64,000 nt of DNA from a virus (lineage: Duplodnaviria > Heunggongvirae > Uroviricota > Caudoviricetes). The stretch is from the IMG/VR virus record IMGVR_UViG_3300047393_000100; one strand, given 5' to 3'. A model generated the notes under the pieces. That model searched no databases. It had not been told where the DNA came from and worked only from the letters and a program-made list of their open reading frames with translations. Numbering within the stretch: position 1 is the stretch's first letter; each line of letters opens with the position of its first letter. The translations under genes and the position numbers were made by a program. Shown here piece by piece: positions 1,443 to 41,844 of the stretch.

Positions 1443-2531
1443 ATGTCAATACCTTATAGTGGTTCAATATCCATGGGACAGGTTGCTCGCGAGCAATGTA
1501 AACCATTATTAAATGTAAAAATGCGAGATATATCTTCATTTGCAGGATATGTTATAAAAGATTCAATTTCTGAATTTTATGGATATAATAGAATATATCC
1601 ATCAGTATCTGGTCTTTTTAGTCCCAGTTTAAGCAGTCTTGCAATGACTAAAATATCTGGAATGACAGGAATTTGGGGTACAGGTCAAATAACGTATATT
1701 GGATCAGCTCCTCTTAATTTAACATTAAAATGGTATGGATCAGGACAATCTTCATATCCAGGATCTCCTGAATTATATTCACCATGGGCAAATGCATATG
1801 CAACTCAACTTAATTTAACAACAGGGCAAGCATTTACCCTAATGACCGGTTATATAAATACTGCGGAAACTGCAATAAGCGTAAATGCACAAGGATTTAC
1901 ATGTGGGCAATCGTATCCAGCGATTGCAACAAGTACTCCAGTTGCAGTTCCTCCAACTACTACAACGGAAAATTCATTTGTATTTGATGCAGACTTTATT
2001 GTATTAACTTACCAATTCACAGATGGACAAGATTTGGATATAAAGGTTAGAATGGCTAGTCCAGATATTGGGCAGAATACTGTAGCAAATTATATCGGAT
2101 ATCCGGCTCCGGTTCCTCATACTGATAAATGGCCACAGACAGGTAGACCTATATTATCATGGGGTGGTGATCAAACAGGAATTGGTCTTGAATCCGTTTT
2201 AATAGATGTTGTAGCATTTCAATTAGCGTATCCTACTGCAACAAAAATGATAATAGATTTAAGGGCATCATGGTTTGTTACTAAAGGATTTAATCCTGTC
2301 AGCGTTATAGCCAAAATGTATACTGGAGGTACGATGGCAGTAAATACTAGTACAAGGAATTGGGTATGTACTGGCTATTCAGCTACTTCTACTGTAAATT
2401 CGGTTTCCAAAAGTATAACATCAATGTATACCACTGCAGGCAGTGGTGATAGATTAGCAACATTAACATATGACATCTCAACGGGACTAGGAACATTTAA
2501 CACCAATGATACTACAACACCTACTGTATAA
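1443..2531 (+). CDS. Ser/Thr/Gly-rich protein, paralog family 1 (possible structural or fibre protein)
   Basis: N-terminus MSIPYSGSISMGQ plus an EFYGY motif, shared with 7420..7890 and 7974..8414. Confidence 0.6.
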   Translation: MSIPYSGSISMGQVAREQCKPLLNVKMRDISSFAGYVIKDSISEFYGYNRIYPSVSGLFSPSLSSLAMTKISGMTGIWGTGQITYIGSAPLNLTLKWYGSGQSSYPGSPELYSPWANAYATQLNLTTGQAFTLMTGYINTAETAISVNAQGFTCGQSYPAIATSTPVAVPPTTTTENSFVFDADFIVLTYQFTDGQDLDIKVRMASPDIGQNTVANYIGYPAPVPHTDKWPQTGRPILSWGGDQTGIGLESVLIDVVAFQLAYPTATKMIIDLRASWFVTKGFNPVSVIAKMYTGGTMAVNTSTRNWVCTGYSATSTVNSVSKSITSMYTTAGSGDRLATLTYDISTGLGTFNTNDTTTPTV

Positions 2532-3437: not shown

Positions 3438-4172
3438 ATGGCACAAATATTTAAAGTAGGAGGTTGCATCAGGGATAAGTTTCTGGGCATCGATTCAAAG
3501 GATATAGATTTTACATTCGTTTGTGAAGAATCACAGACAGTTGAGCAGGGTTGGTTAGAGATGCGATCTTGGATGCTTGAGAGAGGATTTGAAATCTTCT
3601 TAGAAACACAAGATTGTTTTACAATCCGAGCAAAGTTTCCAAAGGACCATCAGTTCTCTGGATTGGTTGCAGATTTTGTAATGGCAAGAAAAGAGGTTGG
3701 ATACGTTGAAGGAACCCGTAGACCTATTTTAGAATTGGGTACTCTGGAAGATGATTTACTTCGTAGAGACTTTACCTTAAATGCCCTAGCAGAAGATATT
3801 GATGGAAACATTATTGATCTTTTTGGTGGTATTGAAGATTTAAAGATGGGAATTCTAAGAACTCCAATGGATGCTAACATTACAATGATGGATGACCCAT
3901 TAAGAATTTTAAGAGCCTTAAGATTTACAGTTACTAAGGATTTCTTTATGAGCGATGATATTTGGGAAGCAATGAAACAACCAAACATCTTAAAGAAACT
4001 TGAACAAACCGTAAGTAGTCAAAGAATCAGAGAAGAACTACTTAAAATGTTTCAATTTAACACACCAAGAACATTTAGATTGTTAATGGATGTAGATGAA
4101 ATTATCCCTGGGTTCTTAGAATTGATTTTTAAAGATGGAATGTGGTTACAACCCACTACTAAAAAAATATAA
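3438..4172 (+). CDS. tRNA nucleotidyltransferase (CCA-adding) / poly(A) polymerase family, head domain
   Basis: N-terminal GGCIRDKFLG..DIDF matches the GGxVRD..DxD nucleotidyltransferase head motif. 244 aa, shorter than a full cellular enzyme. Confidence 0.65.
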   Translation: MAQIFKVGGCIRDKFLGIDSKDIDFTFVCEESQTVEQGWLEMRSWMLERGFEIFLETQDCFTIRAKFPKDHQFSGLVADFVMARKEVGYVEGTRRPILELGTLEDDLLRRDFTLNALAEDIDGNIIDLFGGIEDLKMGILRTPMDANITMMDDPLRILRALRFTVTKDFFMSDDIWEAMKQPNILKKLEQTVSSQRIREELLKMFQFNTPRTFRLLMDVDEIIPGFLELIFKDGMWLQPTTKKI

Positions 4173-4439: not shown

Positions 4440-4733
4440 ATGAAACGGGTAGAAGATAAAGAAATTTTAATATGTGAATGTCATTCAACTGACCATCAAC
4501 TTGTAATATTATACGAGGAAGACACATTAGAGGGAGGACATACATATCCGATGTGTTATTTCCATATACATCTAGCAAAGAAACCATTTTGGCAACGAGT
4601 TAAGTATGGACTAAAATATATCTTTGGATATCAGTGTAATTATGGTGCGTTTGATGAGTTTATATTTAACCCAAAGGATGCTAATAAATTACAAGAGTTG
4701 GTAAACTATTTAAAAAAGATTAAAAATGATTAG
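4440..4733 (+). CDS. hypothetical protein
   Basis: ORF 4374..4733 trimmed to the in-frame ATG at 4440 after the preceding gene. Confidence 0.4.
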   Translation: MKRVEDKEILICECHSTDHQLVILYEEDTLEGGHTYPMCYFHIHLAKKPFWQRVKYGLKYIFGYQCNYGAFDEFIFNPKDANKLQELVNYLKKIKND

Positions 4734-5130
4734 AGTATATTTAGATGATGTAAGAACTCCGGTTGATAAAGATTGGACTGTAGTAAGAAACTATGAAGAA
4801 TTTGTTGATACCGTTACTTACATTGGACTTGAGAACATTGACTTAATCTCATTAGACCATGATTTAGGAGATACTGCAATGGCCGAATGGCAACGAAACG
4901 TTTATCATAATTACGAATTAAATTATGATAATATTCTAGAAAAGACTGGAATGGATTGTACTAAATGGTTAGTAGAACAATGGATGGATGGAAGTCCAGT
5001 AGTTGATGTTGTAATCCATTCTGCGAATGCAATTGGTAGCGCAAATATGATGGGTTATATTAATAACTATCGACATATTCATAGGTTACCTCAAAATTGC
5101 GTAAGAGTACGCATAGAACATACTGTATAA
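4726..5130 (+). CDS. hypothetical protein
   Basis: ORF only. Confidence 0.45.
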   Translation: MIRVYLDDVRTPVDKDWTVVRNYEEFVDTVTYIGLENIDLISLDHDLGDTAMAEWQRNVYHNYELNYDNILEKTGMDCTKWLVEQWMDGSPVVDVVIHSANAIGSANMMGYINNYRHIHRLPQNCVRVRIEHTV

Positions 5131-5574: not shown

Positions 5575-6360
5575 ATGAAAGCATCTTTATTAAATATTAA
5601 AACATCGCCATTAGATGAAAGGGACATTATTATAGAAACAATAATTAGTCCAAATCTACAAATACAATCTGACTTAGATTATAGAAAAGATATGCCAGAA
5701 GTATGGGACCAAGGAGAAGATGGTCCCTGTTCTAGTTTTGCAGCTGCTGCAATTAAAGCATGGCAGGAGAAGATGAATTATGGACTAAATGAGGAACTTT
5801 CACAATATTTTATATACAATATAAGACCCGATAAATCAATCAAGGGAATTAACCCAAGGATTACCATGCGACTATTACAATCATGGGGAATACCTCGCAA
5901 GAAAATTTATAACAATAGACCAATATCTGACGTTAACAAATTATCTAAAGAGATATTAGATGATGCAAAAAATCATAGAATACTTGGGTATGCTGCAGTA
6001 AATACAATAGACGGTTTAAAGGGTTCTTTAATTAAAAATGGTCCAGCATATATTGCAATGCCAGTTTATAATGAAAGCGATACATTTTGGAAAGGTGGCA
6101 AGGGAGATAAAATGTTAGGTGGACATGCGTTAGTAGTGGTAGGTTATAATAAGATTGGATTTATTATAAGAAATTCATGGGGTTCTAATTGGAATGGAGA
6201 TGGACACACAATATATCCTTACACTGAGTTTGGAATGCACCTAGAAATTTGGACATCAATTGACGATACAACATCAACTCGGCAAGTTCCTTCAACTACA
6301 CCGAAACCAGAAAGAAAGGGTATTGCAGGATTGTTTAAAAGGATATTTGGTAAAAATTAA
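5575..6360 (+). CDS. papain-like cysteine peptidase (C1 family)
   Basis: Catalytic Cys motif GPCSSFAAAA; His/Asn region GGHALVVVGY...NSWGSNWNGDG. Confidence 0.7.
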   Translation: MKASLLNIKTSPLDERDIIIETIISPNLQIQSDLDYRKDMPEVWDQGEDGPCSSFAAAAIKAWQEKMNYGLNEELSQYFIYNIRPDKSIKGINPRITMRLLQSWGIPRKKIYNNRPISDVNKLSKEILDDAKNHRILGYAAVNTIDGLKGSLIKNGPAYIAMPVYNESDTFWKGGKGDKMLGGHALVVVGYNKIGFIIRNSWGSNWNGDGHTIYPYTEFGMHLEIWTSIDDTTSTRQVPSTTPKPERKGIAGLFKRIFGKN

Positions 6361-6404: not shown

Positions 6405-6437
6405 TATATTTACATATCTAATTTAAACAAATAAAAT
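6405..6437 (+). promoter_or_regulatory. promoter-like box
   Basis: TATATTTACATATCTAATTTAAACAAATAAAATC upstream of the ATG at 6439. Confidence 0.5.
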
Positions 6438-6438
6438 C

Positions 6439-7383
6439 ATGAAAAAATTATTATTATTATCTGCAATTATATTATTAATGTCATGTGATCCTGGAGAAAT
6501 TCAAGTAGATCCTAAACCTACTCCTCCAATCGTATCAGATGCTCCATTAGCACCAGATCCTATAATCGATACGCCAGTTCCTACTATAAATCTTTCAAAT
6601 TTACCAGAATGGACATTGATTCCAGACCAAAAATTTGAGAATGCATTAATTGCACAGGGAATTGACGATATTTCCGATGGAAGGGTATTAACCAGTAAGA
6701 TATCAACATTGAAAGTATTAAAGGTTGAACACGCTGGAGTAACTAATACTACTGGTCTTGAGAATTTCTTAAGTTTAGAATTTCTTTCTCTATGGGATAA
6801 TCCAATAACTTCAATAGATCTTACACATAATGTTCTGTTACAAATACTAGGATTAAGCGAAACATATCTGGAAACCGTGGATTTATCTAAAAATACAGAA
6901 TTATATAGCGCAGAATTTCAAGGAAATAGTGATAAAAATGAAGATCCAAACTATCCATGGGGTAAAACTAGAGGATTTACATCATTGGATTTTAGTCATA
7001 ATCTTAAACTTCAAAGAATTTATGTAATGTGCAATAGATTAACATCGCTAAATGTTAGAATGTTACCTAAACTAACTGATTTATGGATAGGATGTTCATA
7101 TACAGGACGCACTGGAGGAAATTATATTAAAACAATAGATCTTACTGGTAATCCACGCCTTGGAACATTCATAGTGGCAGGAGGAACCTTTGAATATATT
7201 GATGCCAGAAACGCAAATAGCTCAGGTAATATAATGGTTAATGTTGTCCTTAAAAATAATCCAGATCTAACAAAGGTTAGAGTTACAAATTTAGCGTTAA
7301 TTAAATCTGTTAATGCAATGACTAGACCTGAAGGTCAAAGAGAACCATGGTATTTTGATGCACATACTATTTTATTTGAATAA
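6439..7383 (+). CDS. lipoprotein with leucine-rich-repeat-like segments
   Basis: Signal plus lipobox LLMSC. Repeated LxxLxLxxN-like units. Confidence 0.5.
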   Translation: MKKLLLLSAIILLMSCDPGEIQVDPKPTPPIVSDAPLAPDPIIDTPVPTINLSNLPEWTLIPDQKFENALIAQGIDDISDGRVLTSKISTLKVLKVEHAGVTNTTGLENFLSLEFLSLWDNPITSIDLTHNVLLQILGLSETYLETVDLSKNTELYSAEFQGNSDKNEDPNYPWGKTRGFTSLDFSHNLKLQRIYVMCNRLTSLNVRMLPKLTDLWIGCSYTGRTGGNYIKTIDLTGNPRLGTFIVAGGTFEYIDARNANSSGNIMVNVVLKNNPDLTKVRVTNLALIKSVNAMTRPEGQREPWYFDAHTILFE

Positions 7384-7419
7384 ATAAAGATATATAATAA
7401 ATAAATAAAGATTAATAAA

Positions 7420-7890
7420 ATGGGATTACCATATAGCGGCCAAATATCGATGGGAAATATAAATACTGAGCTCGGAAGAGCAAGTAATACTCCTAATACG
7501 AGATTGGCAGGTGGATTAACTCCGACAATATCTTCTCTATTTGGATTGGCAGATTCAACAATAAATAAAGTAGCTCCTCATCGTATTTCAGAATTTTACG
7601 GTTATTCAAGGGATTATATATCATTCAGTGGATTATATTCAATTGGATATAATGGAAGCGTCAATGGAACTGTTACTGTATCTGGGGGTCCACATAATTT
7701 TTCAGCAGGCGCAACTCAATTCGGAGGAGGAACAACGACTGCGAATATCGTAGTAAACGGTATATCTAGAAGCCGTACTCAAGCTGGAAATGGAACATCA
7801 TATTCAACAACCTTTCAATTAGGAGAAGGAGTATATTCATATTCATTAAGCGTATCTTTGACTGGTAGTGGTAGTGGTTTTATAAATTAA
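7420..7890 (+). CDS. Ser/Thr/Gly-rich protein, paralog family 1
   Basis: MGLPYSGQISMGN.. and SEFYGY, shared with 1443 and 7974. Confidence 0.55.
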   Translation: MGLPYSGQISMGNINTELGRASNTPNTRLAGGLTPTISSLFGLADSTINKVAPHRISEFYGYSRDYISFSGLYSIGYNGSVNGTVTVSGGPHNFSAGATQFGGGTTTANIVVNGISRSRTQAGNGTSYSTTFQLGEGVYSYSLSVSLTGSGSGFIN

Positions 7891-7973
7891 AATATTTCTT
7901 AAAAATATAATATATCTATTAATATGAATGATATGTTAGACTAAATTAGATATATAAAAAAAAAAATAATAAT

Positions 7974-8414
7974 ATGAGTTTAGTATATAGTGGGGCAATT
8001 TCTTTAGGACAAATTAATACAGAAATGGGAGGACCTGGAACTAATAAAAGTTTAACTTCTAATTCGGTCAATGCAGGAAAGGCGCCAGACCATGGCATCC
8101 GAGAATTTTATGGTTATACCCGAAAATACGTATCCTTTAGTTCATTATATTCTATAGGATATAACGGTAGCGCAAGTGGAACTGTTACAATAACGGGAGC
8201 AGCTAATTTTTCAGCAGCAGCACTAAAAACAAATACAGGTGGTATAAATGTTTCAATAACTGTTGGAGGAATTACCAGAACTGCATCGAGGTCTACTGCA
8301 GGAACTACATTTTCTACTACATTTCAACGAGGAACGGGTACATACGCATATTCGTTGAGTGTAAGTTCATTAGTCGGCTCTGGCTCTGGATACATAGACG
8401 TTGTAATGGTTTAA
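7974..8414 (+). CDS. Ser/Thr/Gly-rich protein, paralog family 1
   Basis: MSLVYSGAISLGQ.. and REFYGY. Confidence 0.55.
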   Translation: MSLVYSGAISLGQINTEMGGPGTNKSLTSNSVNAGKAPDHGIREFYGYTRKYVSFSSLYSIGYNGSASGTVTITGAANFSAAALKTNTGGINVSITVGGITRTASRSTAGTTFSTTFQRGTGTYAYSLSVSSLVGSGSGYIDVVMV

Positions 8415-8451
8415 TTTTAAAATATTTTATTAATTCTAAAAAATTCATTAA

Positions 8452-9411
8452 ATGAATATTAAAGGAATTCATGTGTTTAAGGGAGTAAGTGAAAAATCTT
8501 ACTCCGAACACATCTTATTGATTCAAACACTTTCTGCCCTAGAGTGGAAGAAAAATGGACCAATACATTTATATACTACAGAAAAGGATTTAATCTTTTT
8601 CAAAAAAATGGGCATGGATGTTTTATATGATAATATAAATACTGATGTTCTTGAAGAGCCAGACGATATATATTGGCCACACTTCGGTGCTGCTACTAAA
8701 ATGAAGGTTCTTAATTCCATTCAAGAATTTCCAGTTGCATTTATAGATAATGATTTAATTTATAAGGATAAATTAGATGAGTCTATTTTAAATTATGATA
8801 TAACCTATTTGCATGATGAAGGCAGATTTTGGAGAAATTATCCAGATGTGTCTTTATTGGGTAAAAGAAAGGATTATCAATTTCCAAATATTCCGGAACT
8901 TAATACATGTAATCCCATTAATGTTGGATTCTTTATTATAAATAATAAAGAACTTAAAGAAAGATATTGCAAACTAGCATTAGATTTCATGACTAAAAAT
9001 AATAGTTTATCTGCTCCTGTTAAATGGGCAAATCCTGACCTAAGAAAGTTTTGGAAACCATTATTTGCAGAACAACGATTATTATCTGCAGTCGTCGATA
9101 ATGGAGGATTTACAAGAAACCAATTATTTCCATATACATATTATGGAGATACTTGTAATTGGACGCATATTAAAGAAAATGTTAGAATTACCAGCGATAA
9201 TTTATATAAAAAGGAAAAGTTTACATGGTTTCATTTATGGGGAGAAAAGGTGGCATACAAAAAGCCAGCATTTAAACCTCTTAAAGTTATAATGTTTTAT
9301 CAATTATTGAATGAATTATTTAATAGAAAAGACCAAAGAATCACACAAATTGCATGGAATATTTTGGATTGGTTAAAGAAATCAAATTCATCTAATGAAT
9401 ATAATATATGA
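8452..9411 (+). CDS. putative nucleotide-sugar transferase-like protein, paralog family 2
   Basis: Clear paralog of 10995..11966 (..NGPI.LYT...DxLYDxINTxxL..) and more distantly of 10129..10998. Confidence 0.55.
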   Translation: MNIKGIHVFKGVSEKSYSEHILLIQTLSALEWKKNGPIHLYTTEKDLIFFKKMGMDVLYDNINTDVLEEPDDIYWPHFGAATKMKVLNSIQEFPVAFIDNDLIYKDKLDESILNYDITYLHDEGRFWRNYPDVSLLGKRKDYQFPNIPELNTCNPINVGFFIINNKELKERYCKLALDFMTKNNSLSAPVKWANPDLRKFWKPLFAEQRLLSAVVDNGGFTRNQLFPYTYYGDTCNWTHIKENVRITSDNLYKKEKFTWFHLWGEKVAYKKPAFKPLKVIMFYQLLNELFNRKDQRITQIAWNILDWLKKSNSSNEYNI

Positions 9412-10154
9412 AAATAGAAGTAGTAACATTTGTAAATATATCTACAAATTATGCACGCAAATATAAAAAATGTATAGATTCTCAGAGAGAATGGGCCCAA
9501 TTACATGGAATGGGATATACTGTATTTGAATATGCTGCTAAAAATGATTTGCAAAATGATTGGGAATTTTATATTAATTATTTTAATATAATAAGGGAAG
9601 ATGGAATCTATTATCTTGGAATATTACCAAGTGTTATGATTTTAAATAAACATGAAAATCCATTTGAAAATATTCAATGGGGTGGAATTCTTGTCAACTC
9701 ATGCGTAAATCCATCATTCTATATGTCGCCAAACATAACTGATGAATATTTATTAGAAACTATAATGTTTTCTAAATTATTTAAAGATACTCCTACTAGT
9801 TTACCAATGTTAGGACTTAGAATTATTATTTGTAAGACAATTGATTATGTTGTAGAATATAAAGATTTGCATGTTGGCATGCCATATATTCAGGGTCTTT
9901 CATCTGGAATGGAAATGCACTTAGATACAAATAAAGAAGGTATTGTTGAAGTTTCGTATAGTCCTAGATTGTTAGAAGATGATCAGTTCTATCGACCTGG
10001 AGATTTTGCAGTTAATATTCCATTTAAAAATAACTTTGGGAAAGCATATATTATAGAATTCTCTCGTATTAAAAAACAGATAGATAAGATAATGAAATTA
10101 GGAAAGAGTTTGGAACAAGATTTATCATATGAAAAAGGCAATTTGGGTTCTTGA
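9408..10154 (+). CDS. hypothetical protein (possible GT-A-like transferase)
   Basis: The N-terminus MKIEVVTFVN resembles the start of Gma12/Mnn10-type sugar transferases. Weak. Confidence 0.4.
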   Translation: MKIEVVTFVNISTNYARKYKKCIDSQREWAQLHGMGYTVFEYAAKNDLQNDWEFYINYFNIIREDGIYYLGILPSVMILNKHENPFENIQWGGILVNSCVNPSFYMSPNITDEYLLETIMFSKLFKDTPTSLPMLGLRIIICKTIDYVVEYKDLHVGMPYIQGLSSGMEMHLDTNKEGIVEVSYSPRLLEDDQFYRPGDFAVNIPFKNNFGKAYIIEFSRIKKQIDKIMKLGKSLEQDLSYEKGNLGS

Positions 10155-10998
10155 AAATATTAAAGAATCTGACGATTTCTATGATGAATTAACAATTATT
10201 ATGTTAATTGCAAGTATATGCTCATGGAAAAGGCATAATATTACATTTGATGAATTGCATTGCGATTCTAGAACACTAGAAAAATTAAAAGAATTTAATA
10301 TATTACATCTATGGGATAACGTAGATACTTCGATCGTTGATTCCTATACATCCATTAATAAAACTACATTTTGGGCAAGTTCAAAGGTTAGAGTCCTACT
10401 TGCACAAAATGAGTGTGTTTCATTAATTGACACTGATTTTATTTCATATGCTCCTATTTATAATATTGGAAATGAATATCCTATAATCTATTCGCATGAT
10501 GAAGATGGATTACAGTGGTATTGTGGAACAGAAGATCCCTATATTAAGAAAATAAAAGGATTGCCTATATGGCTAATCCATACTCCAAATAAATCAGCGC
10601 TCAATGTATGTTATTTAAGTTTTAATGATATAGAAATCCAACAGGAATATGCAAAATATGCCGTGAAATGCATGGAAGAATTAAGTATGTATGATGCTCC
10701 AGTAGGGGTGCACATGGTCTGGGCAGAGCAAAAAATACTCAAACAGATTATTACACATCACCAAATCGAGTGTAAGACATTGATTAAGAATGTATTCTCA
10801 TGTGAATCTAAGAACTTTAAAGAAGATCTTTTTAACTATTCAGGGGAATGGACATATAATGAATCTTTAACTAAATATTATCATGTTGGATTTGATAAAA
10901 AAGATCTTAGAAACGAAGGATCCGATTTAAAATTCTTATATATAATTTGTAGAGATTATATAGATATAGAGTCACTTAAACTTAAATTCACAAAATGA
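10129..10998 (+). CDS. paralog family 2 protein
   Basis: Similar architecture to 8452 and 10995. Confidence 0.5.
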   Translation: MKKAIWVLENIKESDDFYDELTIIMLIASICSWKRHNITFDELHCDSRTLEKLKEFNILHLWDNVDTSIVDSYTSINKTTFWASSKVRVLLAQNECVSLIDTDFISYAPIYNIGNEYPIIYSHDEDGLQWYCGTEDPYIKKIKGLPIWLIHTPNKSALNVCYLSFNDIEIQQEYAKYAVKCMEELSMYDAPVGVHMVWAEQKILKQIITHHQIECKTLIKNVFSCESKNFKEDLFNYSGEWTYNESLTKYYHVGFDKKDLRNEGSDLKFLYIICRDYIDIESLKLKFTK

Positions 10999-11966
10999 AA
11001 GCAATACATGTAAATTGGACTGCACCTTTTTTTAATAAAGAAAGACTAAGAGGACATGGATTTTCTATAACTAAAGATTTAAATTCAATAGAGTATAGTA
11101 TTCCCGACTATCAAATATTATATACAATTCTATCAATACTTAGATGGAAATTACATAATGGACCTATAAAATTATACACAGATTCAATAGGTTTAAATTA
11201 TTATAAAACAATCGGAATAGATGCATTATACGATGATATCAATACTGAGTTTCTAGATAATTTAACGGGAGTCGATGCAGCGTATTACTGGACTTCTGGC
11301 AAAATACAAGCACTTCGAAACGAAAATGAACCATTTGTGTTTTTAGATCAGGATTTTATAGTTAGAGGAACCATACCAGAATCCTTTTATTATGGAGATA
11401 TTGGAATTGGACACTGGGAAATTCCAAGAGGTAATTATTATTTTACTAAAAAACAGTGGGAGTCTGAAATTAAACATGTTTCATTTCCTATAAATTATAA
11501 TTGTAATGCATATTCACCTAATACATCTTTTGTTTATTTTGGATCTAATTCTGCCATTGATGAATACGTAAACGCACATAAAGAATTAATAAACTCCGGA
11601 GATAATGAAGTACCTGAGTGGTTTTGGTTAGCAACTGACCAAGGTATTTTAGGACATATTATTAGGGAACATGAATATCACACAAATACATTAACAAATA
11701 GAATATTTTTAGCAGATAGCGATTATGCTAAAGTAGAAGATAGAAAGTTTGGATATTCTGAACAATGGTACTATCCAACTGAATTTGATTCTAGTAAAAA
11801 TGAATTAGAATGGGAACACGTTTGGTTAGCCAAGGTGGTATATGCGTCAAATCCTTTATTATTATCGAATGACTGCACACGATTTTATGAAGAGATAAAA
11901 AACGTTTTTCCAGAATATTCTTATATTTTAAAAGAAACAAGATTAAAACAATATGAAAATAGTTAG
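10995..11966 (+). CDS. paralog family 2 protein
   Basis: Strong similarity to 8452..9411. Confidence 0.55.
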   Translation: MKAIHVNWTAPFFNKERLRGHGFSITKDLNSIEYSIPDYQILYTILSILRWKLHNGPIKLYTDSIGLNYYKTIGIDALYDDINTEFLDNLTGVDAAYYWTSGKIQALRNENEPFVFLDQDFIVRGTIPESFYYGDIGIGHWEIPRGNYYFTKKQWESEIKHVSFPINYNCNAYSPNTSFVYFGSNSAIDEYVNAHKELINSGDNEVPEWFWLATDQGILGHIIREHEYHTNTLTNRIFLADSDYAKVEDRKFGYSEQWYYPTEFDSSKNELEWEHVWLAKVVYASNPLLLSNDCTRFYEEIKNVFPEYSYILKETRLKQYENS

Positions 11967-12741
11967 AGTTCTTTGGGGTAATAGTGATACTACATGGAAT
12001 GAAATTCCTGAAAAACCACTATTCGATAATGAAATAGTATATGTATGGGGAACTGAAAATCAGGCAAGATTAATTTCTAGAGGATATAATACAATTATAT
12101 TAGGACCTTATATCACACAACCAGAATACAGCAACATATATACTCATTTCGTGCATAAATTACATGCTCTTTCCGTTGCTGAAAAGGATTTCGAAGAATA
12201 TCTATTTTTGGATTGGGATGTTAATATTGTAAAAAAAATAGATGACCAGTTCTGGGATTTAATAAGAAGCAATGGACCTATACAGATTCCAACGTATAGT
12301 TATCCTAAAGGATATGAAAGTGTTGTATCAAAATTCTTATTAGATAATCCTGAAAATGAAAAGGTTAAGAATTTAGATCCTAACATTATTAAATGGATTA
12401 ATGTACAAAATACAATGTTAGAGAAATATAGCTGGGATTTTGAGGATATTAATGTTGTTCCTAATTTCTGTTTTTTTTATTCAAATGGTACAAATGCAAT
12501 ATCTAAACTTATGGAAATATATCGTAAATACAATATTAAAACATGTATTGAAGAATTTTGTATGTTTATTTTTGCAAACTGCACACTTGAAGATTTTATA
12601 AATACATATGAACCTCTGGTTATTAATGGATGTAGAGATGATTATCATCATTTTGATAATTTAGATGACTATTCAATACTAAAAATAAATCAGCATGTAA
12701 AAACCATAATATATAAAAATATTTATCTAGTACATCAATAA
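11953..12741 (+). CDS. hypothetical protein (possible transferase)
   Basis: ORF; N-terminus MKIVRVLWG. Confidence 0.45.
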   Translation: MKIVRVLWGNSDTTWNEIPEKPLFDNEIVYVWGTENQARLISRGYNTIILGPYITQPEYSNIYTHFVHKLHALSVAEKDFEEYLFLDWDVNIVKKIDDQFWDLIRSNGPIQIPTYSYPKGYESVVSKFLLDNPENEKVKNLDPNIIKWINVQNTMLEKYSWDFEDINVVPNFCFFYSNGTNAISKLMEIYRKYNIKTCIEEFCMFIFANCTLEDFINTYEPLVINGCRDDYHHFDNLDDYSILKINQHVKTIIYKNIYLVHQ

Positions 12742-12742
12742 T

Positions 12743-13456
12743 ATGCATTTTAAAGATCCAATAATAGAGTCAGGCATCCAAGATATTAAATATCTAGCAC
12801 CAATTCCAATATATCAACATCAATTTGAAGATGATGATTTCAGTAATAGAGTTTATGCATTTGGGTTTGAAACCTTAAATGAAAAACAAAAACAAATGGG
12901 ACAAGAACTTCCAGGAAGATTTGATGATGAGAGGCAAGAAACATTCCAAGTATGGTATGACAGAGCAGATCAATGGGTAGAGGAAAATGAATTACAACCA
13001 ATTGGCAGCAGATTTTGGACACCTCCTAATGATTTTTTAGATATTGATAATGTGGATGTTCATATAATTAGGCAAAGAATTGAAAATGGATATTTACATT
13101 TATTGAATTCTCTTGGATATTCACATGAATCAACTCCAATAATTACTGAAAGTTGGATGCAATATTATGATCCATATAGCGGAAGAGGACATAATGCACA
13201 TAATCACTGTAGATGGAGTGCAAGTGAAGCAAAACCAATGATGTTTAGTGGAGGTTACTACCTATCAGATGGATTACCAATTAAAGACCATCCATACTCT
13301 GGAGTATTTGCGTTTCATATTAGAGGTATGAAATATTATATAAGACCCAAAAAAGGAATGTTAATTATTTGGCCTTATGATATTATTCATTCTGTTGAGC
13401 CTTTTTATGGAGCAGAGCACCGATGTGTAATTAACTTTAATATACAACTCAAGTAA
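12743..13456 (+). CDS. putative 2OG-Fe(II) oxygenase
   Basis: C-terminal H..D...H-like pattern (WPYDIIHSVEP..AEHR). Weaker than 13456. Confidence 0.45.
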   Translation: MHFKDPIIESGIQDIKYLAPIPIYQHQFEDDDFSNRVYAFGFETLNEKQKQMGQELPGRFDDERQETFQVWYDRADQWVEENELQPIGSRFWTPPNDFLDIDNVDVHIIRQRIENGYLHLLNSLGYSHESTPIITESWMQYYDPYSGRGHNAHNHCRWSASEAKPMMFSGGYYLSDGLPIKDHPYSGVFAFHIRGMKYYIRPKKGMLIIWPYDIIHSVEPFYGAEHRCVINFNIQLK

Positions 13457-14016
13457 TGGAAAATATAGGATATGATATTTTCGTTTTTAGAAAAAGTATT
13501 CCTTTTCAAACAATAGAATTATGTAATACTATTAGAAATGAATCCAACTCTGATGGAAGAATCGATGCTAACGATATTTTAATGGAAAGCTTTAATAGTT
13601 TTATTAAAGAATTATATAATGATGTGATTCTAGATTATTTAAAAATATATGATGTAGAGAACGGAATAGGTTATAACTCAAGTATTGATACCGTTAATGA
13701 AATTAAGGAGTATGTTAGTCCATTATGGCGAGAAGTATTTTTATTAAAATATTCTGAAACATATCCCATCTCTTATGAAAAAAACGTGCATTGGGATTTT
13801 TCTATGTTTACTATTGTCGGATGTTTAAACGATGAATTTGAAGGAGGTGAACTTGAATTTCCTAGGCAAGAAATAAGTGTTTTATTAAAAAAAGGAGATA
13901 TTGTGATTTTTCCAGGAGGGTTAACCCATCCGCATTTTGTGAATAAAGTTACCAAGGGAGAGAGATATGTTATCGTTGGTCAAACCCTATATCCTGGCTT
14001 AAATAAAATAAAATAA
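13456..14016 (+). CDS. 2OG-Fe(II) oxygenase (prolyl 4-hydroxylase-like)
   Basis: FPGGLTHPHFVNKVTKGERYVIVGQ and an upstream H.D-like segment, typical of the P4Hc family. Confidence 0.6.
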   Translation: MENIGYDIFVFRKSIPFQTIELCNTIRNESNSDGRIDANDILMESFNSFIKELYNDVILDYLKIYDVENGIGYNSSIDTVNEIKEYVSPLWREVFLLKYSETYPISYEKNVHWDFSMFTIVGCLNDEFEGGELEFPRQEISVLLKKGDIVIFPGGLTHPHFVNKVTKGERYVIVGQTLYPGLNKIK

Positions 14017-15063
14017 ATGAAAGTATATTGTACATTACCATTTACCAGAATGAAAATAAATTCTGATGGAGAATATCATTCATGTTGCCACCAGAATATA
14101 CATTATGGAAATATAATAAAGGAGGATATTACAATAAAGGAAGCATTTGATAAAGACATTATCAAAGATATTCAAAATTCTATTTTAGGAAATAATTTAC
14201 ACGATGCTTGTAATACCCCTAGGTGTCCATTTTATTCAAAACGAAATGAATTAGATACGCTATTCATGAACGATGTAGAATATACGGACCAACCTATTGA
14301 TTTTGAACTTTCATTACCATCTTCGCATTGTAATATAGGAGGAACAGACCCTACACCTGATACTGCATGCCCAATGTGCCCTAGGGCATCTGTGTCTTTT
14401 ATTGAGCATGAACCATCCATTGATTTAATAGAAATAGTATTGGATAAATTAAAACCTATTATGAATAAGGTTAAAATACTAAATATACAGGGAATCGCTG
14501 AACCGTTTTGGAAAGGAAAAGTATTTGAAATTTTAAATAAATTAGATTTTAAAAAATATAGAAATGTTATACATTTTTGGAGTTTTACAAATGGAACAGT
14601 ATTTGGAGATAAAATACAAGATAAATTTATAGAAATGGTAGGATTTGCTAGTTTAGGATTTTCAATAGATGCAGCAACACCCGAAACGTATATTAAAGTA
14701 AGAAAATTAAATTACTTTAAAACTATTGAGAGAAATTTAAAAAAATATTTCGAAAAAACAAAGAATCTTAAAAATGAAAATGGTTGGTTACATTCGTTTA
14801 CGACATATAATATCAATATGATAAATGTGCATGAAATGGAACAAATGGTCAGGTGGTCACATGGGATAGGGGCAGATAGAACAGAATTTACATTAACATT
14901 TATAAGTGCTCCTGAAATTCCAATAGGTACCGAAAATATATGTAATAAAGATAATTGGCATATATTTTGGGAAGGACAACAAAGGGCGATGCATGTTGCA
15001 AAGGAATTAAATTATAGTGTAACATTTTATGTTCCATTTCATGGAGGATTTTTAAATAATTAA
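14017..15063 (+). CDS. Cys-rich protein (possible Fe-S or radical-SAM-related)
   Basis: Several Cys clusters (SCCHQ, CNTPRCP, CNIGG...CPMCP). No canonical CxxxCxxC. Confidence 0.45.
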   Translation: MKVYCTLPFTRMKINSDGEYHSCCHQNIHYGNIIKEDITIKEAFDKDIIKDIQNSILGNNLHDACNTPRCPFYSKRNELDTLFMNDVEYTDQPIDFELSLPSSHCNIGGTDPTPDTACPMCPRASVSFIEHEPSIDLIEIVLDKLKPIMNKVKILNIQGIAEPFWKGKVFEILNKLDFKKYRNVIHFWSFTNGTVFGDKIQDKFIEMVGFASLGFSIDAATPETYIKVRKLNYFKTIERNLKKYFEKTKNLKNENGWLHSFTTYNINMINVHEMEQMVRWSHGIGADRTEFTLTFISAPEIPIGTENICNKDNWHIFWEGQQRAMHVAKELNYSVTFYVPFHGGFLNN

Positions 15064-15065
15064 TT

Positions 15066-15968
15066 ATGAGAGATTTTATAGTTGCCAGGTCTTGGCGCAC
15101 GTTTGACAAACAACAATTAGTTGCACTTACTGAAATATGTAAAATAATTGTTCAACAAGAAAGATATATTGATAATGCCGAAATACATTTAAATATTAAT
15201 AATCCAAATCATGAAATGCAGGCAAAGGCATTTCAATTACTTCCCCCTGGTGTTAGTTTATTTTTTTATGATAACGCTGAACTTGAACAATACGTAAGGG
15301 ATTGTGGAATTGAACCAGACATAGAAAAGTACAGAGAATGGGAATGGATATACCATATCATATTACACCATAAATTATATCATGAAAGAGGTAATGATTA
15401 CGTTTTAACATATGATGATGATATTTTATTTAATGATGTTGATTTTTCAGATATAGTACATTTCGTAACTACTAAAATTCCATTTAGTATTGCGGATCAA
15501 TTTGTTGATGCAGATAAACCAATGATGGGTAAACTTATTGAAAAATTTGGCAATGAATTATTTGAAAATTATTATCGATGTCATGGTAATGATAAATCTG
15601 GAAACTCTGGTTTTATGGGATTTAACAACAGTACGATGTCTCTGTTTACTTCTAAGGAGGATTTTCAATGGTTGATTAATTCATTTATATATAAGAGATG
15701 GGACCACATGACGATGCAGGGTACATCATGGGACACCTATAAGGTATTAATACAGGAACAATCATTACTATCAATATTAAATAGAGCGTATTCAAATACG
15801 GAACATATCATACTATTACATAGTGATGGGTATATTTTGACAACCGACATGGAATTAATGAAACAGAGTAAAATAATGCATTTTATTTCAACTACAAAAT
15901 ATTCCGAAGAATACACGCAACTTATTGAGAATAAGTATACTATATTACAAGAGGTATTTAAAATATAA
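15066..15968 (+). CDS. hypothetical protein
   Basis: ORF. Confidence 0.5.
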   Translation: MRDFIVARSWRTFDKQQLVALTEICKIIVQQERYIDNAEIHLNINNPNHEMQAKAFQLLPPGVSLFFYDNAELEQYVRDCGIEPDIEKYREWEWIYHIILHHKLYHERGNDYVLTYDDDILFNDVDFSDIVHFVTTKIPFSIADQFVDADKPMMGKLIEKFGNELFENYYRCHGNDKSGNSGFMGFNNSTMSLFTSKEDFQWLINSFIYKRWDHMTMQGTSWDTYKVLIQEQSLLSILNRAYSNTEHIILLHSDGYILTTDMELMKQSKIMHFISTTKYSEEYTQLIENKYTILQEVFKI

Positions 15969-15998
15969 ATTGTTAATAACTTTCTTTGAAAATAAGTA

Positions 15999-16027
15999 GC
16001 CAAACATTTTTTTGTTTGGCTTTTTTT
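15999..16027 (+). terminator. Rho-independent terminator
   Basis: GCCAAAC-ATTTTTTT-GTTTGGC plus T7; duplicate of 2561-2589. Confidence 0.7.
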
Positions 16028-16030
16028 GTT

Positions 16031-16057
16031 TAGATTTACATTATAATTAAAACAAAT
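16031..16057 (+). promoter_or_regulatory. promoter-like box
   Basis: TAGATTTACATTATAATTAAAACAAAT. Confidence 0.55.
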
Positions 16058-20531: not shown

Positions 20532-21410
20532 ATGATAATATTAGATTTAGTTAACCCGGAAAAATCGCAAATCAAGTACAAAATTAGTCAATTCCCAGAT
20601 GGTCAACAAACAGTAGACCTTACAGAATGGAATGACTTATTGAGATATACTGATGCTGTAAAAATTAGCTCACGTTTAAATAGTTTTAAAGATTTAGAAT
20701 TAATTATTTGTGCAACCACTGCGATCAGAAATATTAAACCTACCAGAGAAATTATCCTTTACGTTCCTTATTTTGTAGGTGCTCGTTCAGATCGCAAATT
20801 TAGCGAAGGTGGAGTTAATTATCTAAAACAGGTAATTTGTCCAATTATTAATTCTTTAAATTTTATAACTGTAATTACGTTAGATCCACACTCTGATGTA
20901 TTGGAAGCATGCTTGAATAACTATGAAAAATTAGATAATCACATACTAGCAAAATATGCACTTTCAAATATAGATAATAAAAAAGATGCTCAAGAAAGAA
21001 TTTGTTTAGTAAGCCCAGATGCTGGAGCATATAAGAAAATCTTTGATGTTGCTAAAAAGTTTGGAATTCAAAATGTTGTTACTGCAAATAAAGTAAGAGA
21101 CATGAAAACTGGTAATATTCTTAAGACCGAGGTTCCAAACCTACCAGGAATTGTTGGAGATGATTTACAATATGTAATCATCGATGATATTTGCGATGGT
21201 GGTAGAACATTTAATGAACTAGCAAAGGCAATTAGAGAACAACGAAGTGATGCAAAGATCTATTTAGTAGTAACCCATGGTATCTTTAGCGCTGGATTTA
21301 AAGAATTATCACAATACTTCGAAGGAATTTATACAACAAATAGTTATCGAGAAGTTGCAGATAATGAATATGAAGAAAAAACAAACACAATAGTATTTAA
21401 AGTAATATAA
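20532..21410 (+). CDS. ribose-phosphate pyrophosphokinase (PRPP synthetase)-like protein
   Basis: PRTase-type fold with VIIDDICDGGRT (the PRPP-binding loop, D-D-x-x-D-x-G) and a Prs-like layout. Could equally be an ADP-ribose-processing Prs homolog. Confidence 0.6.
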   Translation: MIILDLVNPEKSQIKYKISQFPDGQQTVDLTEWNDLLRYTDAVKISSRLNSFKDLELIICATTAIRNIKPTREIILYVPYFVGARSDRKFSEGGVNYLKQVICPIINSLNFITVITLDPHSDVLEACLNNYEKLDNHILAKYALSNIDNKKDAQERICLVSPDAGAYKKIFDVAKKFGIQNVVTANKVRDMKTGNILKTEVPNLPGIVGDDLQYVIIDDICDGGRTFNELAKAIREQRSDAKIYLVVTHGIFSAGFKELSQYFEGIYTTNSYREVADNEYEEKTNTIVFKVI

Positions 21411-27299: not shown

Positions 27300-28865
27300 A
27301 TGAACCCATTATTTTTAACAGACGGTTACAAAACAGGACATCACCAACAATATCCAAAAGGAACTACGTTGGTTTATTCTAACTTCACTCCTCGTAGTAA
27401 CAAGTATGCTCCTAAAGGTTGCGATCAATTAGTATCATTTGGTCAACAAATGGTAGTTAAACAAATTCACGAAGCATTCGATAAAGATTTCTTTAGTAAA
27501 CATAAAGACGAAGTTTGTGGAGAAATGAAACGCGAATTGTCAATGTACTTAAATACTGACTATGATGTTAGTCACTTTGAAGCTTTGCATGATTTAGGTT
27601 ATTTGCCTATCATTGTTAAGTCAATTAAAGAAGGTAGTTTAGTACCAATGAGAGTTCCAGTATTGACAATTTACAATACACATCCAGATTTCTATTGGAT
27701 TACAAACTATTTAGAAACAGTTATTTCTAACTTATTGTGGAAACCAATGACTTCTGCAACTATGGCGCATTCTTATCGTAAGTTATTTACTTCATGGCAA
27801 GAAAAAACCGATGCTGAAAAAGGTTGGTTCGTAGATTGGCAAGCACATGATTTCTCAATGAGAGGTTTAGATTCTATTGATGCTACTATTAGTTCAGGTT
27901 TGGGTCACTTAACAAGTTTCTCAGGTTCAGACAGTTTACCAGCAATCTTTGGAGCAAGAAAATTCTATAATGAAACTGGATTTGTGTCCGGTTCGGTAAA
28001 TGCAACTGAACATTCAGTTATGTGTGCTGGTAGTAAAGAAGATGAGGTTGGAACATTTAGAAACTTGATGGAAACATATCCAACTGGAATTCTTTCAATA
28101 GTCAGCGACACATGGGATCTTTGGAAAGTTTGTACCAGTCACTTAGTTATCTTAAAAGAAGAGATTTTAGCAAGAGAAGGTAAAGTAGTTATTAGACCTG
28201 ACTCTGGAGATCCAGTCGATATTATTTGTGGATTAAATACACAACCAAAGGGTGTTAAAGGAACTAATGGACCTGGACCAGAAGTTACTACAAATGCAGA
28301 ATTGGACAAAGAACATCCTGCACAAAAAGGTGTTATTGAATTATTATGGGATGTATTTGGTGGAGAAATCAACGAACAAGGTTATAAAGTATTAGATCCT
28401 CACATTGGAGCAATATATGGAGATTCAATCACATTAGACCGTGCTGAACAAATCTTTACAAGATTAGAAGCAAAGGGATTCGCAAGTACAAACATAGTTT
28501 TAGGCGTAGGTTCATTTACATATCAATTTAACACAAGAGATACATTCGGGTTTGCAATGAAAGCCACTTATGTTGAAATAAAAGAACATTTTAGAACAGT
28601 TAAAGACGAGAATGGTAATTATACACACTCTGAAGAAATCATTATAGGTCGTGAAATCTTCAAAGATCCAATCACCGATGATGGTATTAAGAAATCTGCA
28701 AAAGGTTTATTAAGAGTTGTTGGAGATGAAACATGTATGTTATTAGAAGATCAATGTACATGGGACGATGAAGCTACTGGTAAATTAAAGGTAATTTATA
28801 ATAATGGTCAATTTGAAAACCAAACTACTTTGACAGAAATTCGTGAACGTTTAACAAATTCATAA
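27300..28865 (+). CDS. nicotinamide phosphoribosyltransferase (NAMPT/NadV) family
   Basis: N-terminal NP(I/L)(F/L)xTD(G/S)YK hallmark (MNPLFLTDGYKTGHHQQYP) and ~520 aa length, typical of NadV. Confidence 0.75.
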   Translation: MNPLFLTDGYKTGHHQQYPKGTTLVYSNFTPRSNKYAPKGCDQLVSFGQQMVVKQIHEAFDKDFFSKHKDEVCGEMKRELSMYLNTDYDVSHFEALHDLGYLPIIVKSIKEGSLVPMRVPVLTIYNTHPDFYWITNYLETVISNLLWKPMTSATMAHSYRKLFTSWQEKTDAEKGWFVDWQAHDFSMRGLDSIDATISSGLGHLTSFSGSDSLPAIFGARKFYNETGFVSGSVNATEHSVMCAGSKEDEVGTFRNLMETYPTGILSIVSDTWDLWKVCTSHLVILKEEILAREGKVVIRPDSGDPVDIICGLNTQPKGVKGTNGPGPEVTTNAELDKEHPAQKGVIELLWDVFGGEINEQGYKVLDPHIGAIYGDSITLDRAEQIFTRLEAKGFASTNIVLGVGSFTYQFNTRDTFGFAMKATYVEIKEHFRTVKDENGNYTHSEEIIIGREIFKDPITDDGIKKSAKGLLRVVGDETCMLLEDQCTWDDEATGKLKVIYNNGQFENQTTLTEIRERLTNS

Positions 28866-40860: not shown

Positions 40861-40933
40861 GGGGCTATGGTGAAATTGGTTATCACGCTGCCCTTGCACG
40901 GCTGTATTCAGAGTTCGAATCTCTGTAGCTCCA
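40861..40933 (+). tRNA. tRNA-Ala (anticodon TGC)
   Basis: Acceptor GGGGCTA/TAGCTCC carrying the G3:U70 Ala identity pair. D-arm GTGA-AATTGGTTA-TCAC, anticodon loop CTTGCAC, T-arm CAGAG-TTCGAAT-CTCTG; 73 nt. Confidence 0.8.
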
Positions 40934-41017
40934 CTCTATTTTTAAAGGATACGTTCAGCAAATTAAAAAACTTGATCTGTAAATTCAACAAAAAGTTATC
41001 CTGTAAAATATTAAAAT

Positions 41018-41103
41018 GCTCGGGTGGTGAAACTGGTAGACACGCTGGACTTAAAATCCAGTTGACAGCAATGTCAGTGCGGGTTCGATTCCCGCCCCGA
41101 GTA
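41018..41103 (+). tRNA. tRNA-Leu (anticodon TAA), type II
   Basis: Acceptor GCTCGGG/CCCGAGT, anticodon arm CTGGA-CTTAAAA-TCCAG, long variable arm TGACA..TGTCA, T-arm GCGGG-TTCGATT-CCCGC; 86 nt. ORFs 40867..41109(+) and 40908..41165(-) overlap it and are spurious. Confidence 0.8.
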
Positions 41104-41111
41104 CTATAAAT

Positions 41112-41196
41112 GGAAGATTGGCAGAGTGGTCGATCGCGGCAGTCTTGAAAACTGTTGTACTGCAAGGTACCGTAGGTTCGAATCCTACATCTTCCG
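41112..41196 (+). tRNA. tRNA-Ser (anticodon TGA), type II
   Basis: Acceptor GGAAGAT/ATCTTCC, anticodon arm GCAGT-CTTGAAA-ACTGT, variable arm GTAC-TGCAAG-GTAC, T-arm GTAGG-TTCGAAT-CCTAC; 85 nt. Confidence 0.7.
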
Positions 41197-41331
41197 CCTT
41201 TTTCAATTTATTAATAAAAAAAAGTAAATTGAAGTTAAGTCTTTAGAATAAGACATTAAAGAATTCAAATGTTGGAATGTTAATTATTCCTAAAATTACT
41301 ATAAAGGTGATGTTAGTAACCTTCCAACAAT

Positions 41332-41837: not shown

Positions 41838-41844
41838 TTAAATT

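Follow-up and report, generated by a model that had tools for sequence, protein, structure and literature searches.

A cassette of glycosyltransferases and tailoring enzymes

The window analyzed here is a 64,000-nucleotide stretch of DNA from a tailed phage (Caudoviricetes; IMG/VR record IMGVR_UViG_3300047393_000100) and represents 64 kb of a genome of ~243 kb. Between positions 8452 and 15968 it carries nine + strand open reading frames (ORFs), which start at 8452, 9408, 10129, 10995, 11953, 12743, 13456, 14017 and 15066 and are named here by these positions. A first-pass annotation, made from the letters alone, had described these genes as coupled, and indeed all nine ORFs are present with junctions of -26 to +2 nt (in order, -4, -26, -4, -14, +1, -1, 0 and +2 nt). 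The cassette can be firmly assigned to a cytoplasmic pathway of glycan building and tailoring, which combines soluble, DxD-type GT-A glycosyltransferases with oxidative and radical tailoring enzymes. Its genes are as follows:

8452..9411, + strand: DUF6734-type GT-A glycosyltransferase paralog; DxD D99/D101; paralogous to 10129 and 10995 by BLASTP and hidden Markov model (HMM)
9408..10154, + strand: conserved partner of 8452; no DxD and no family match
10129..10998, + strand: DUF6734 GT-A glycosyltransferase paralog; DxD D101/D103; PF20508 at 31.8 bits
10995..11966, + strand: core DUF6734 GT-A glycosyltransferase; DxD D118/D120; invariant H275
11953..12741, + strand: core second glycosyltransferase, GT-A fold, no sequence family; DxD D87/D89
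12743..13456, + strand: core probable dioxygenase of the double-stranded beta-helix type, Oxy_5-like; invariant H150, H153, H155, D213, H216 and R227
13456..14016, + strand: accessory prolyl/lysyl-hydroxylase-type 2-oxoglutarate (2OG)/Fe(II) oxygenase; H112-x-D114, H158/H160 and R170
14017..15063, + strand: probable radical S-adenosylmethionine (SAM) enzyme with an N-terminal twitch/SPASM-type Cys domain; C105-x12-C118-x2-C121
15066..15968, + strand: probable GT8-like transferase; Y116-DDD, NSGFMG and QEQS motifs

No transmembrane-like segment was detected in the nine cassette proteins, the top 19-residue Kyte-Doolittle mean being ≤1.34.

The modeled transferases share a GT-A fold but not a single sequence family

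The 8452, 10129 and 10995 proteins, which the first-pass annotation had recognized as paralogs, are mutually related (BLASTP E values of 3e-16 to 4e-11, 25-28% identity) and fall into one HMM family. The 10129 and 10995 proteins pass the 27-bit gathering cut-off of Pfam DUF6734 (PF20508), with 31.8 and 36.3 bits, respectively, whereas 8452 does not match the Pfam model despite its BLASTP and HMM paralogy to the other two. A full-text literature search for DUF6734 returned no paper. The AlphaFold2 (AF2) model of 10995 (predicted local distance difference test score, pLDDT, of 92) shows a single Rossmann-like alpha/beta/alpha GT-A fold, and D118, D120 and H275 are invariant in the alignment of its family (A1), which comprises at least 196 clusters in metagenomes. 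The 11953 protein has no Pfam family and no relation to DUF6734 that was detectable by hhalign; its AF2 model (pLDDT 94.9) also adopts a GT-A fold, and the LDWD motif that holds D87 and D89 is invariant in its family (alignment A2). The question of GT-A or GT-B likeness, which had been raised as a check on the first annotation, is answered by these two models in favor of GT-A.

The closest fold relatives include LgtC and WbbM, and the top fold neighbors of 11953 include TcdA/B, Lgt1/2, SetA, LtpM and a 5h60-type transferase. A fold search of BFVD gave GT-A matches at the level of the fold alone (template modeling (TM) scores ≤0.46), profile-to-PDB searches with alignments A1, A2, A3, A4 and A6 gave no meaningful match, and none of the nine cassette proteins matches Pfam GT8 (PF01501) even at E values up to 1. 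As modeled, the cassette transferases are GT8-like by fold and motifs alone and lie outside GT8 by sequence. Given their DxD motifs, their presumed donors are nucleotide sugars and their presumed cofactor is Mn2+.

The cassette had also been described as holding five paralogous transferases, with GT-like N-termini in 9408 and 11953. This number does not hold, as BLASTP, hhalign and HMM comparison detect no kinship in sequence between 9408 and 11953, or between either of them and the three paralogs; the GT-like assignment is borne out for 11953 by its fold, but not for 9408, which has neither a family or profile match nor a DxD. Searches of Pfam, PHROG and NCBIfam with 9408 gave no match, and hhalign was negative against the DUF6734 and 11953 families. 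Alignment A5 of the 9408 family shows invariant P74, V76 and M77 and a GDFAVN motif. A GT34-like reading of the N-terminus and GDFAVN found no support in the family search. The 9408-type gene always follows an 8452-type gene, and its product is possibly a non-catalytic partner of 8452.

The 15066 protein, which had been left unclassed, contains the motifs Y-DDD (D117-119), NSGFMG and QEQS in GT8 order and has no family match. Its homologs (27 representatives, alignment A6) include one, P0174, that is fused to a GT25 domain. By hhalign its relation to DUF6734 is weak to marginal (E 0.028) and its relation to the 11953 family negative or marginal. These motifs suggest that 15066 is probably a further transferase.

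Two predicted oxygenases and a probable radical-SAM enzyme

The 12743 protein, previously noted for a weak oxygenase motif, matches phrog_81 ('2OG-Fe(II) oxygenase') at 1.4e-17, but it falls just under the 27-bit Pfam cut-offs (26.8 bits for PF13759 and 24 bits for PF13640) and reaches 24 bits for TIGR02466 against a cut-off of 62.5. Its family is strikingly conserved: in alignment A3 the columns average 70% identity and 78 positions are invariant. The apparent metal site is HxH...H (H153, H155 and H216), accompanied by R227, rather than HxD...H, and may be cupin-like. Literature searches on PF13759 and TIGR02466 found papers but nothing on function.

By contrast with 12743, the 13456 oxygenase passes PF13640 (33.1 versus 27 bits) and matches phrog_61 at 5.6e-21, in agreement with the prolyl-4-hydroxylase (P4H)-type motif first proposed for it. 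By inspection, its predicted iron triad is H112-W-D114 with H158/H160, and R170 is the predicted basic residue that binds 2OG. The best PDB sequence matches, all weak, are LH3, PiuC and P4H.

The 14017 protein had been called Cys-rich. It has just nine Cys residues, all of which are invariant in the family, and is probably a radical-SAM/SPASM-type protein: a SPASM match at residues 5-70 (22.7 bits, cut-off 21.5) precedes a Radical_SAM (PF04055) match at residues 117-280 (24.8 bits, under the 29.5-bit cut-off), and phrog_14086 ('radical SAM') is matched at 3.6e-10. The N-terminal Cys domain contains the invariant residues C5, C23, C24, C65 and C70. The canonical CX3CX2C cluster motif is missing, and an invariant CX12CX2C is found instead. 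With 70.7 bits (E 1.2e-19) against a cut-off of 170 bits, 14017 appears to be a relative and not a member of NCBIfam NF033640 (N_Twi_rSAM), with which its architecture, a Cys domain ahead of the radical-SAM core, agrees. Weak matches to peptide-maturase families are generic and below cut-offs. The papers found under the twitch radical-SAM name did not address function.

A conserved triad lies among tail genes in uncultured aquatic phages

A near-identical relative, L001 (ERZ28593943 scaffold_1), is a 242.8-kb metagenomic scaffold, and more distant relatives are contigs of 180-256 kb with terminase, tail sheath and tail tube genes. The jumbo size of these relatives and their terminase, sheath and tube genes thus indicate that the source of the window is a jumbo myovirus, an uncultured one from freshwater. 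A lipoprotein signal in the style of Bacteroidota and, in one relative, a DUF6089/outer-membrane protein gene suggest a Flavobacteriia-type host. Megablast of the cassette against 50,697 GenBank phage records gave no match, nor did tblastn of 10995, 14017, 12743 and a 337-aa DUF6734 protein against the same records, and there is therefore no cultured phage to serve as an anchor.

The IMG/VR scan yielded 71 loci; a 10995-type gene is held by 45 IMG/VR and metagenome loci. In all 45, the 10995-type transferase occurs together with an 11953-type transferase and a 12743-type dioxygenase, the 11953-type gene being present in one to three copies downstream of the 10995-type gene. The radical-SAM gene is also found in 19 of these triad loci, and in many loci a 10129-type gene stands just before the 10995-type gene. 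Three architectures were observed:

Architecture A: terminase, sheath, tube, ~930-aa protein, module, zinc-ribbon protein, non-specific endonuclease
Architecture B: tail fiber of 1200-2000 aa (often collagen-like), 180-aa protein, S74-chaperone short fiber or GT25 gene, module, sheath and tube
Architecture C: fiber block, lone 337-aa DUF6734 gene, terminase

The ~930-aa protein of architecture A, which is Gly/Ala-rich with hydrophobic stretches, is probably the tape measure. In several jumbo phages the gene that follows the module is the non-specific endonuclease. Elsewhere, two GT25 families, a carbamoyltransferase, a P4H-type oxygenase and methyltransferases are inserted in the module, a predicted repertoire that is typical of glycan assembly and decoration. 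One further cluster, c72, was initially considered GT9-like and was dropped when Pfam did not confirm it. In one phage lineage, represented by loci L039 and L040, a gene at ~7750-8950 that is weakly similar to cytosine-5 DNA methyltransferases (E 3.5e-4, PDB 3g7u) lies between two DUF6734 genes; it is the sole hint of a connection to DNA.

The 8452 and 9408 pair stands apart from the core module in L048-L069, ~1.6 kb downstream of a collagen-like gene, and in one 256-kb genome it lies ~200 kb from the core module. As the pair is a separate unit elsewhere, the cassette of the window is composite. The collagen-like proteins (558-575 aa with 77-92 Gly-X-Y triplets; ~6600-8350 in the coordinates of L048-L069) are encoded upstream of every such pair whose contig extends that far, and collagen-like fibers are also found in 10 of the 45 core-module loci. 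Between the window (~11166-13915) and L001 (~10170-12920), a tract of ~2.9 kb shows 99.6-100% nucleotide identity and covers most of 10995 together with 11953, 12743 and 13456, while the rest of the cassette and the flanks are 70-89% identical. This pattern indicates recent recombination of the core module, which travels as a recombination unit.

The dioxygenase has a cellular counterpart

A scan with the 12743 alignment revealed homologs with 54-58% identity in bacterial metagenome-assembled genomes. The Sandaracinus homolog is on a 999-kb contig with 74% G+C, and those of Flavobacteriales, Cryomorphaceae and Schleiferiaceae are on contigs with ordinary housekeeping neighbors; the Flavobacteriales dioxygenases are 55-56% identical to the phage enzyme. 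An equivalent scan of bacterial genomes with the DUF6734 alignment gave no match, its patterns being too specific. The bacterial loci are:

Dioxygenase loci in bacteria: L082 8110-11614; L085 4386-10961; L086 450-3052; L087 5419-8016; L083 8476-10765

At all four Flavobacteriales-type loci the dioxygenase gene is divergently paired with a gene for a ~600-aa ATP-binding cassette (ABC) exporter, the best NCBIfam match of which is MsbA (E 1e-77 to 1e-87; 260-292 bits against a cut-off of 602). Three of these loci offer sufficient sequence, and two of them have a tandem series of one to four Pfam GT8 genes after the dioxygenase. The divergent neighbor in Sandaracinus (508 aa) carries WIDADV, NTGLFV and DQGPL motifs and is GT-A-like by motifs alone, Pfam being uninformative. 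Because the dioxygenase stands beside GT8-like genes in bacteria, the pairing predates its use by phages and is not tied to fibers.

The conservation of 12743 between phages and bacteria also bears on its substrate. Given such conservation, the enzyme more likely acts on a sugar, a sugar donor or another invariant small moiety than on a variable fiber protein. A model in which protein is hydroxylated and then glycosylated is therefore weakened for the core module. Of the protein hydroxylation and glycosylation system initially proposed for this cassette, glycosylation is favored by synteny, and the hydroxylation-first step is not favored for the core.

The cassette and its upstream neighbors may form one transcription unit

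The signals that flank the cassette, and the proteins encoded upstream of it, are:

1443..2531, + strand: larger protein, 33% Ser/Thr/Gly, outside the putative operon; phrog_24956 at 1e-14
6405..6431, + strand: variant copy TATATTTACATATCTAATTTAAACAAA of a promoter-like motif, the last such motif 5′ of the cassette; putative promoter
6439..7383, + strand: putative lipoprotein with leucine-rich repeats, opening the putative unit; N-terminus MKKLLLLSAIILLMSC; phrog_7816 at 1.9e-17
7420..7890, + strand: small protein, 43% Ser/Thr/Gly, candidate acceptor or fiber-like; no PHROG match
7974..8414, + strand: small protein, 44% Ser/Thr/Gly; paralog of 7420
15998..16031, + strand: intrinsic-terminator-like hairpin, a 9-bp stem and then a T-run, 30 nt past the last stop

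The 6439 N-terminus is, by inspection, a lipoprotein-type signal, as the first-pass annotation had it, and its close homolog in L001 shows faint leucine-rich repeat matches. The Ser/Thr/Gly-rich proteins had been presented as three paralogs. This is correct for 7420 and 7974 (BLASTP E 9e-33), whereas 1443 has just its N-terminal ~60-74 residues in common with them, its C-terminal half being similar to hypothetical proteins of other jumbo phages. One homolog of 7420/7974 is found at the same position in L001-L003. In the window, the cassette adjoins a lipoprotein gene and Ser/Thr/Gly-rich proteins and no recognizable structural genes.

A 26-nt motif, TATATTTACATTATAATTAAAACAAA, is present in 16 copies in the window (nine of them perfect), all intergenic and on the + strand. 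The copies span 2593-59320 and include those at 16031, 17614, 27014, 32539, 36557, 37493, 50363, 52340, 53832 and 54842. At 13 sites a box, ATTGTTAATAACTTT, lies ~50-60 nt 5′ of the motif, and sometimes the terminator hairpin precedes it as well; the hairpin with its flanking boxes is found again at 2560. This arrangement resembles a promoter/terminator cassette, specific to the phage, by which the genome would be punctuated. A scan of the window for sigma-70-like promoters found no sites above background. Because no copy of TATATTTACATTATAATTAAAACAAA occurs between the 6405 variant and 16031, where the next promoter-like motif begins, we infer a single transcription unit at 6439-15968 that comprises the lipoprotein, the two proteins with 43-44% Ser/Thr/Gly and the nine enzymes.

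Possible roles of the cassette

In the pathway that we envisage, four to six soluble GT-A transferases (the three DUF6734 proteins, 11953, probably 15066 and possibly 9408) would add sugars successively to an acceptor, while the 12743 dioxygenase and the 14017 radical-SAM enzyme would tailor the sugar or the sugar donor and the accessory 13456 enzyme may add a hydroxyl group either to a sugar or to a side chain of a protein. The acceptors that we tentatively favor are fiber or other virion proteins of the phage, and their decoration would produce a glycosylated adsorption apparatus. We rank this reading first because the module is found within tail gene blocks in three architectures, because the cassette is apparently co-transcribed with Ser/Thr/Gly-rich proteins in the window, because it contains no lipid-carrier or export genes, and because there are mycobacteriophage and giant-virus precedents. 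In two of the architectures the module comes directly after tail fiber, S74-chaperone fiber, tape-measure-like, sheath and tube genes, and in the third a single DUF6734 gene closes the fiber block ahead of the terminase. Several points weigh against it. The acceptor is deduced from context, and its type is not set by the fold neighbors of the models. The Ser/Thr/Gly-rich proteins neighbor the module in the closest relatives only, and the upstream neighbor varies with the architecture (tape measure or fiber), so that no single adjacent substrate is conserved; moreover, the predicted limits of the operon follow from motif logic alone. The 54-58% identical dioxygenase is found in bacterial chromosomes without phage fibers, and its GT8 and MsbA-like exporter context in Flavobacteriales suggests a glycan of the cell that is possibly lipid-linked. 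Both GT8 and GT25 are classic families of the lipopolysaccharide (LPS) and lipooligosaccharide (LOS) core. Finally, similar islands have been read as a means of host O-chain modification (PMC7029224).

A more specific, and unlikely, version of fiber decoration is that the triad and the twitch radical-SAM enzyme make a sugar not known before, tailored by oxidative or radical chemistry, that is put on the fibers of uncultured aquatic phages; in this phage the P4H-type enzyme may first create a hydroxy-amino-acid site, in the manner of Skp1 and collagen. The phages would have a pathway in common with Flavobacteriales and Sandaracinaceae, namely their uncharacterized dioxygenase-GT8-exporter pathway, and would probably have borrowed it from there. 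If true, glycosylation chemistry of this kind would be a first for a bacteriophage.

The last points raised against fiber decoration are those that favor a remodeling of the host envelope, in which lipid-linked glycans of the host (LPS/LOS core, O-chain or another exported glycolipid) would be modified by the enzymes at the inner membrane, on its cytoplasmic face. The altered cell surface would exclude competitor phages or keep progeny off debris, and the lipoprotein would belong to the same program. This account, which we regard as less likely but as a serious rival, draws on LgtC and WbbM as close fold relatives, on GT25 'LPS biosynthesis' members that are accessory genes in other phages, on the lipoprotein gene that opens the putative operon, and on the Flavobacteriales, the predicted host clade, where the same dioxygenase stands by one to four GT8 genes and an MsbA-like exporter; LPS-core transferases are likewise soluble or peripheral. 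The replacement of surface LPS is, however, slow within one lytic cycle, and placement of the module in tail and fiber blocks would be expected to bring late expression. Nor does the cassette contain a lipid-carrier priming transferase, a flippase, a ligase or a nucleotide-sugar synthesis gene, and the exporter is generic, its MsbA assignment being far under the cut-off. Envelope remodeling is nonetheless the interpretation preferred in pelagimyophage and cyanophage studies (PMC7029224, PMC12801897).

Hypermodification of DNA, the other function put forward in the first-pass annotation, finds little support and is highly improbable. Here the oxygenase would hydroxylate a base and the transferases would glycosylate it, and the phage DNA would be shielded from restriction, as it is in T-even phages and in TET-associated systems. 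The combination of an oxygenase with several transferases does resemble the generally known TET/JBP-plus-glycosyltransferase clusters (Pyle et al. 2024, as cited in PMC12619734), and both the methyltransferase-like gene within the L039/L040 module and the endonuclease gene that follows the module in several jumbo phages could be accommodated. However, Tet_JBP matches 13456 at E 0.063 (12.9 bits versus 34.9) and does not match 12743, ThyA is canonical-looking with no sign of a hydroxymethylase, and no enzyme that generates 5-methylcytosine or 5-hydroxymethylcytosine was recognized within the 64-kb window. The module also lies in structural gene blocks and not among genes of replication or nucleotide metabolism, and the bacterial dioxygenase homologs are beside GT8 and exporter genes rather than DNA-modification genes. 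We consider it improbable, too, that the cassette glycosylates host proteins during takeover (translation factors, for example, in the manner of toxin glucosyltransferases) or matures a secreted glycopeptide or glycoside. The neighborhood of 11953 in fold space (TcdA/B, Lgt1/2, SetA, LtpM and the 5h60-type transferase), the peptide-maturase matches of 14017 and the ABC exporter that adjoins the cellular counterpart would fit such a role, but four to six tandem transferases suit the assembly of an oligosaccharide and not one toxin-like modification, the radical-SAM matches are generic and below cut-offs, and the cassette contains no precursor-peptide gene or peptidase-type exporter. The link to the fiber block would also be left unexplained.

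Relation to known systems

To our knowledge, capsid glycosylation in chlorovirus PBCV-1 has no oxygenase or radical-SAM partner. The likeness of the cassette transferases to its A64R protein (PDB 2p6w) is at the level of the fold only, with 11% identity, and PBCV-1 is a virus of eukaryotes. In the Skp1 pathway, which joins a P4H to a GT8-like alpha-galactosyltransferase (PDB 6mw8), and in the collagen LH3 and mimivirus lysyl hydroxylase-glycosyltransferases, hydroxylation is also paired with glycosylation. Here, however, the P4H-type gene is accessory and not core, the core dioxygenase is Oxy_5-like with an apparent HxH...H site, and hydroxylation is predicted from genes alone. The GT8 and GT25 transferases of the LOS/LPS core (LgtC, PDB 1g9r, and RfaJ-type enzymes) are ~10% identical, no protein of the window reaches Pfam GT8 or GT25, and the module genes, unlike those of the core pathway, lie within phage tail gene blocks.

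Among phages, glycosylation of the virion by glycosyltransferases from structural operons is established in mycobacteriophages (Freeman et al. 2023, as cited in PMC12619734). That system and the present one have in common soluble phage glycosyltransferases in or next to structural blocks and a glycan coat, predicted here, on virion proteins. They differ in enzyme families, in targets (capsid or tail tube, as opposed to the fiber/tail proteins proposed here), in the Gram-negative host and in the dioxygenases and radical-SAM enzyme, and the present cassette is known from its genes alone. The TET/JBP systems likewise cluster an oxygenase with several glycosyltransferases in a phage genome, but the window cassette has no TET/JBP-family enzyme and its module has a structural neighborhood.

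Pelagimyophages and cyanomyophages carry variable islands beside their tail fibers, with GT8-type transferases and radical-SAM cassettes whose function is uncharacterized (PMC7029224, PMC12801897). These are also aquatic myophages; the reports are at the level of annotation and do not describe the triad, the folds or the bacterial counterpart, and the loci studied here are not identified with those phages. Freshwater jumbo 'moraphages', which have the same predicted hosts, carry four core putative glycosyltransferase orthogroups (PMC12619734); the window is not placed in that lineage. The cassette had been called unusual, which is half right: glycosyltransferase islands, some by tail fibers and some with radical-SAM genes, were already known in phages, if uncharacterized. 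What is new is the fold assignment by model for DUF6734 and the 11953 family, the strict co-occurrence of the triad, seen in at least 45 loci of uncultured phages, the radical-SAM enzyme with its N-terminal twitch domain and CX12CX2C motif, and the cellular dioxygenase-GT8-exporter counterpart. Pfam DUF6734 and the previously unannotated 11953-type family would thereby gain a fold and a probable activity. The triad provides a testable handle on the 'LPS-like' glycosyltransferase islands of marine and freshwater myophages, the purpose of which (host surface, DNA or virion) has been debated for ~20 years, and ties these islands to an uncharacterized cellular dioxygenase-GT8 pathway. If fibers or virions do carry glycans, host range, adsorption and the ability to withstand proteases or host defenses would all be affected, in aquatic phages that are abundant and uncultured.

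Other features of the window

With a G+C content of ~30%, the window carries every one of its long ORFs, tRNA genes and promoter-like motifs on the + strand. It also encodes NAD-salvage enzymes, a DNA ligase and a ThyA homolog. The NAD+ salvage pair consists of a ribose-phosphate pyrophosphokinase (20532-21410) and a nicotinamide phosphoribosyltransferase (NAMPT; 27300-28865), the latter ~49% identical to the NAMPTs of many cultured phages. The thymidylate synthase homolog (60839-62038; 399 aa, TTG start) has a canonical-looking catalytic core: it matches cellular ThyA at 9e-73 and retains the LGxPFNIASY motif in the aligned stretch, with extra segments of ~40 and ~35 residues between the aligned blocks.

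Three genes, at 3438-4172, 4726-5130 and 5575-6360, lie just upstream of the putative operon. One has an N-terminus that is, by eye, similar to CCA-adding enzymes and poly(A) polymerases; relatives L006 and L008 have genes of similar size with PolyA_pol matches. Another encodes a protein with a cREC_REC 'cyclic-phosphate processing receiver' domain (9e-22), and one a papain-like C1 peptidase, which still adjoins the lipoprotein gene in L001. The first ~840 nt of the window contain no ORF. A tRNA cluster (Leu, Ile and Gln) is located at 268-896 and a second (Ala, Leu, Ser, Arg and Asp) at 40861-41917. The tRNA-Gln gene (825-896) overlaps the mechanical start of ORF 839, an HNH endonuclease, the true start of which is probably further downstream.

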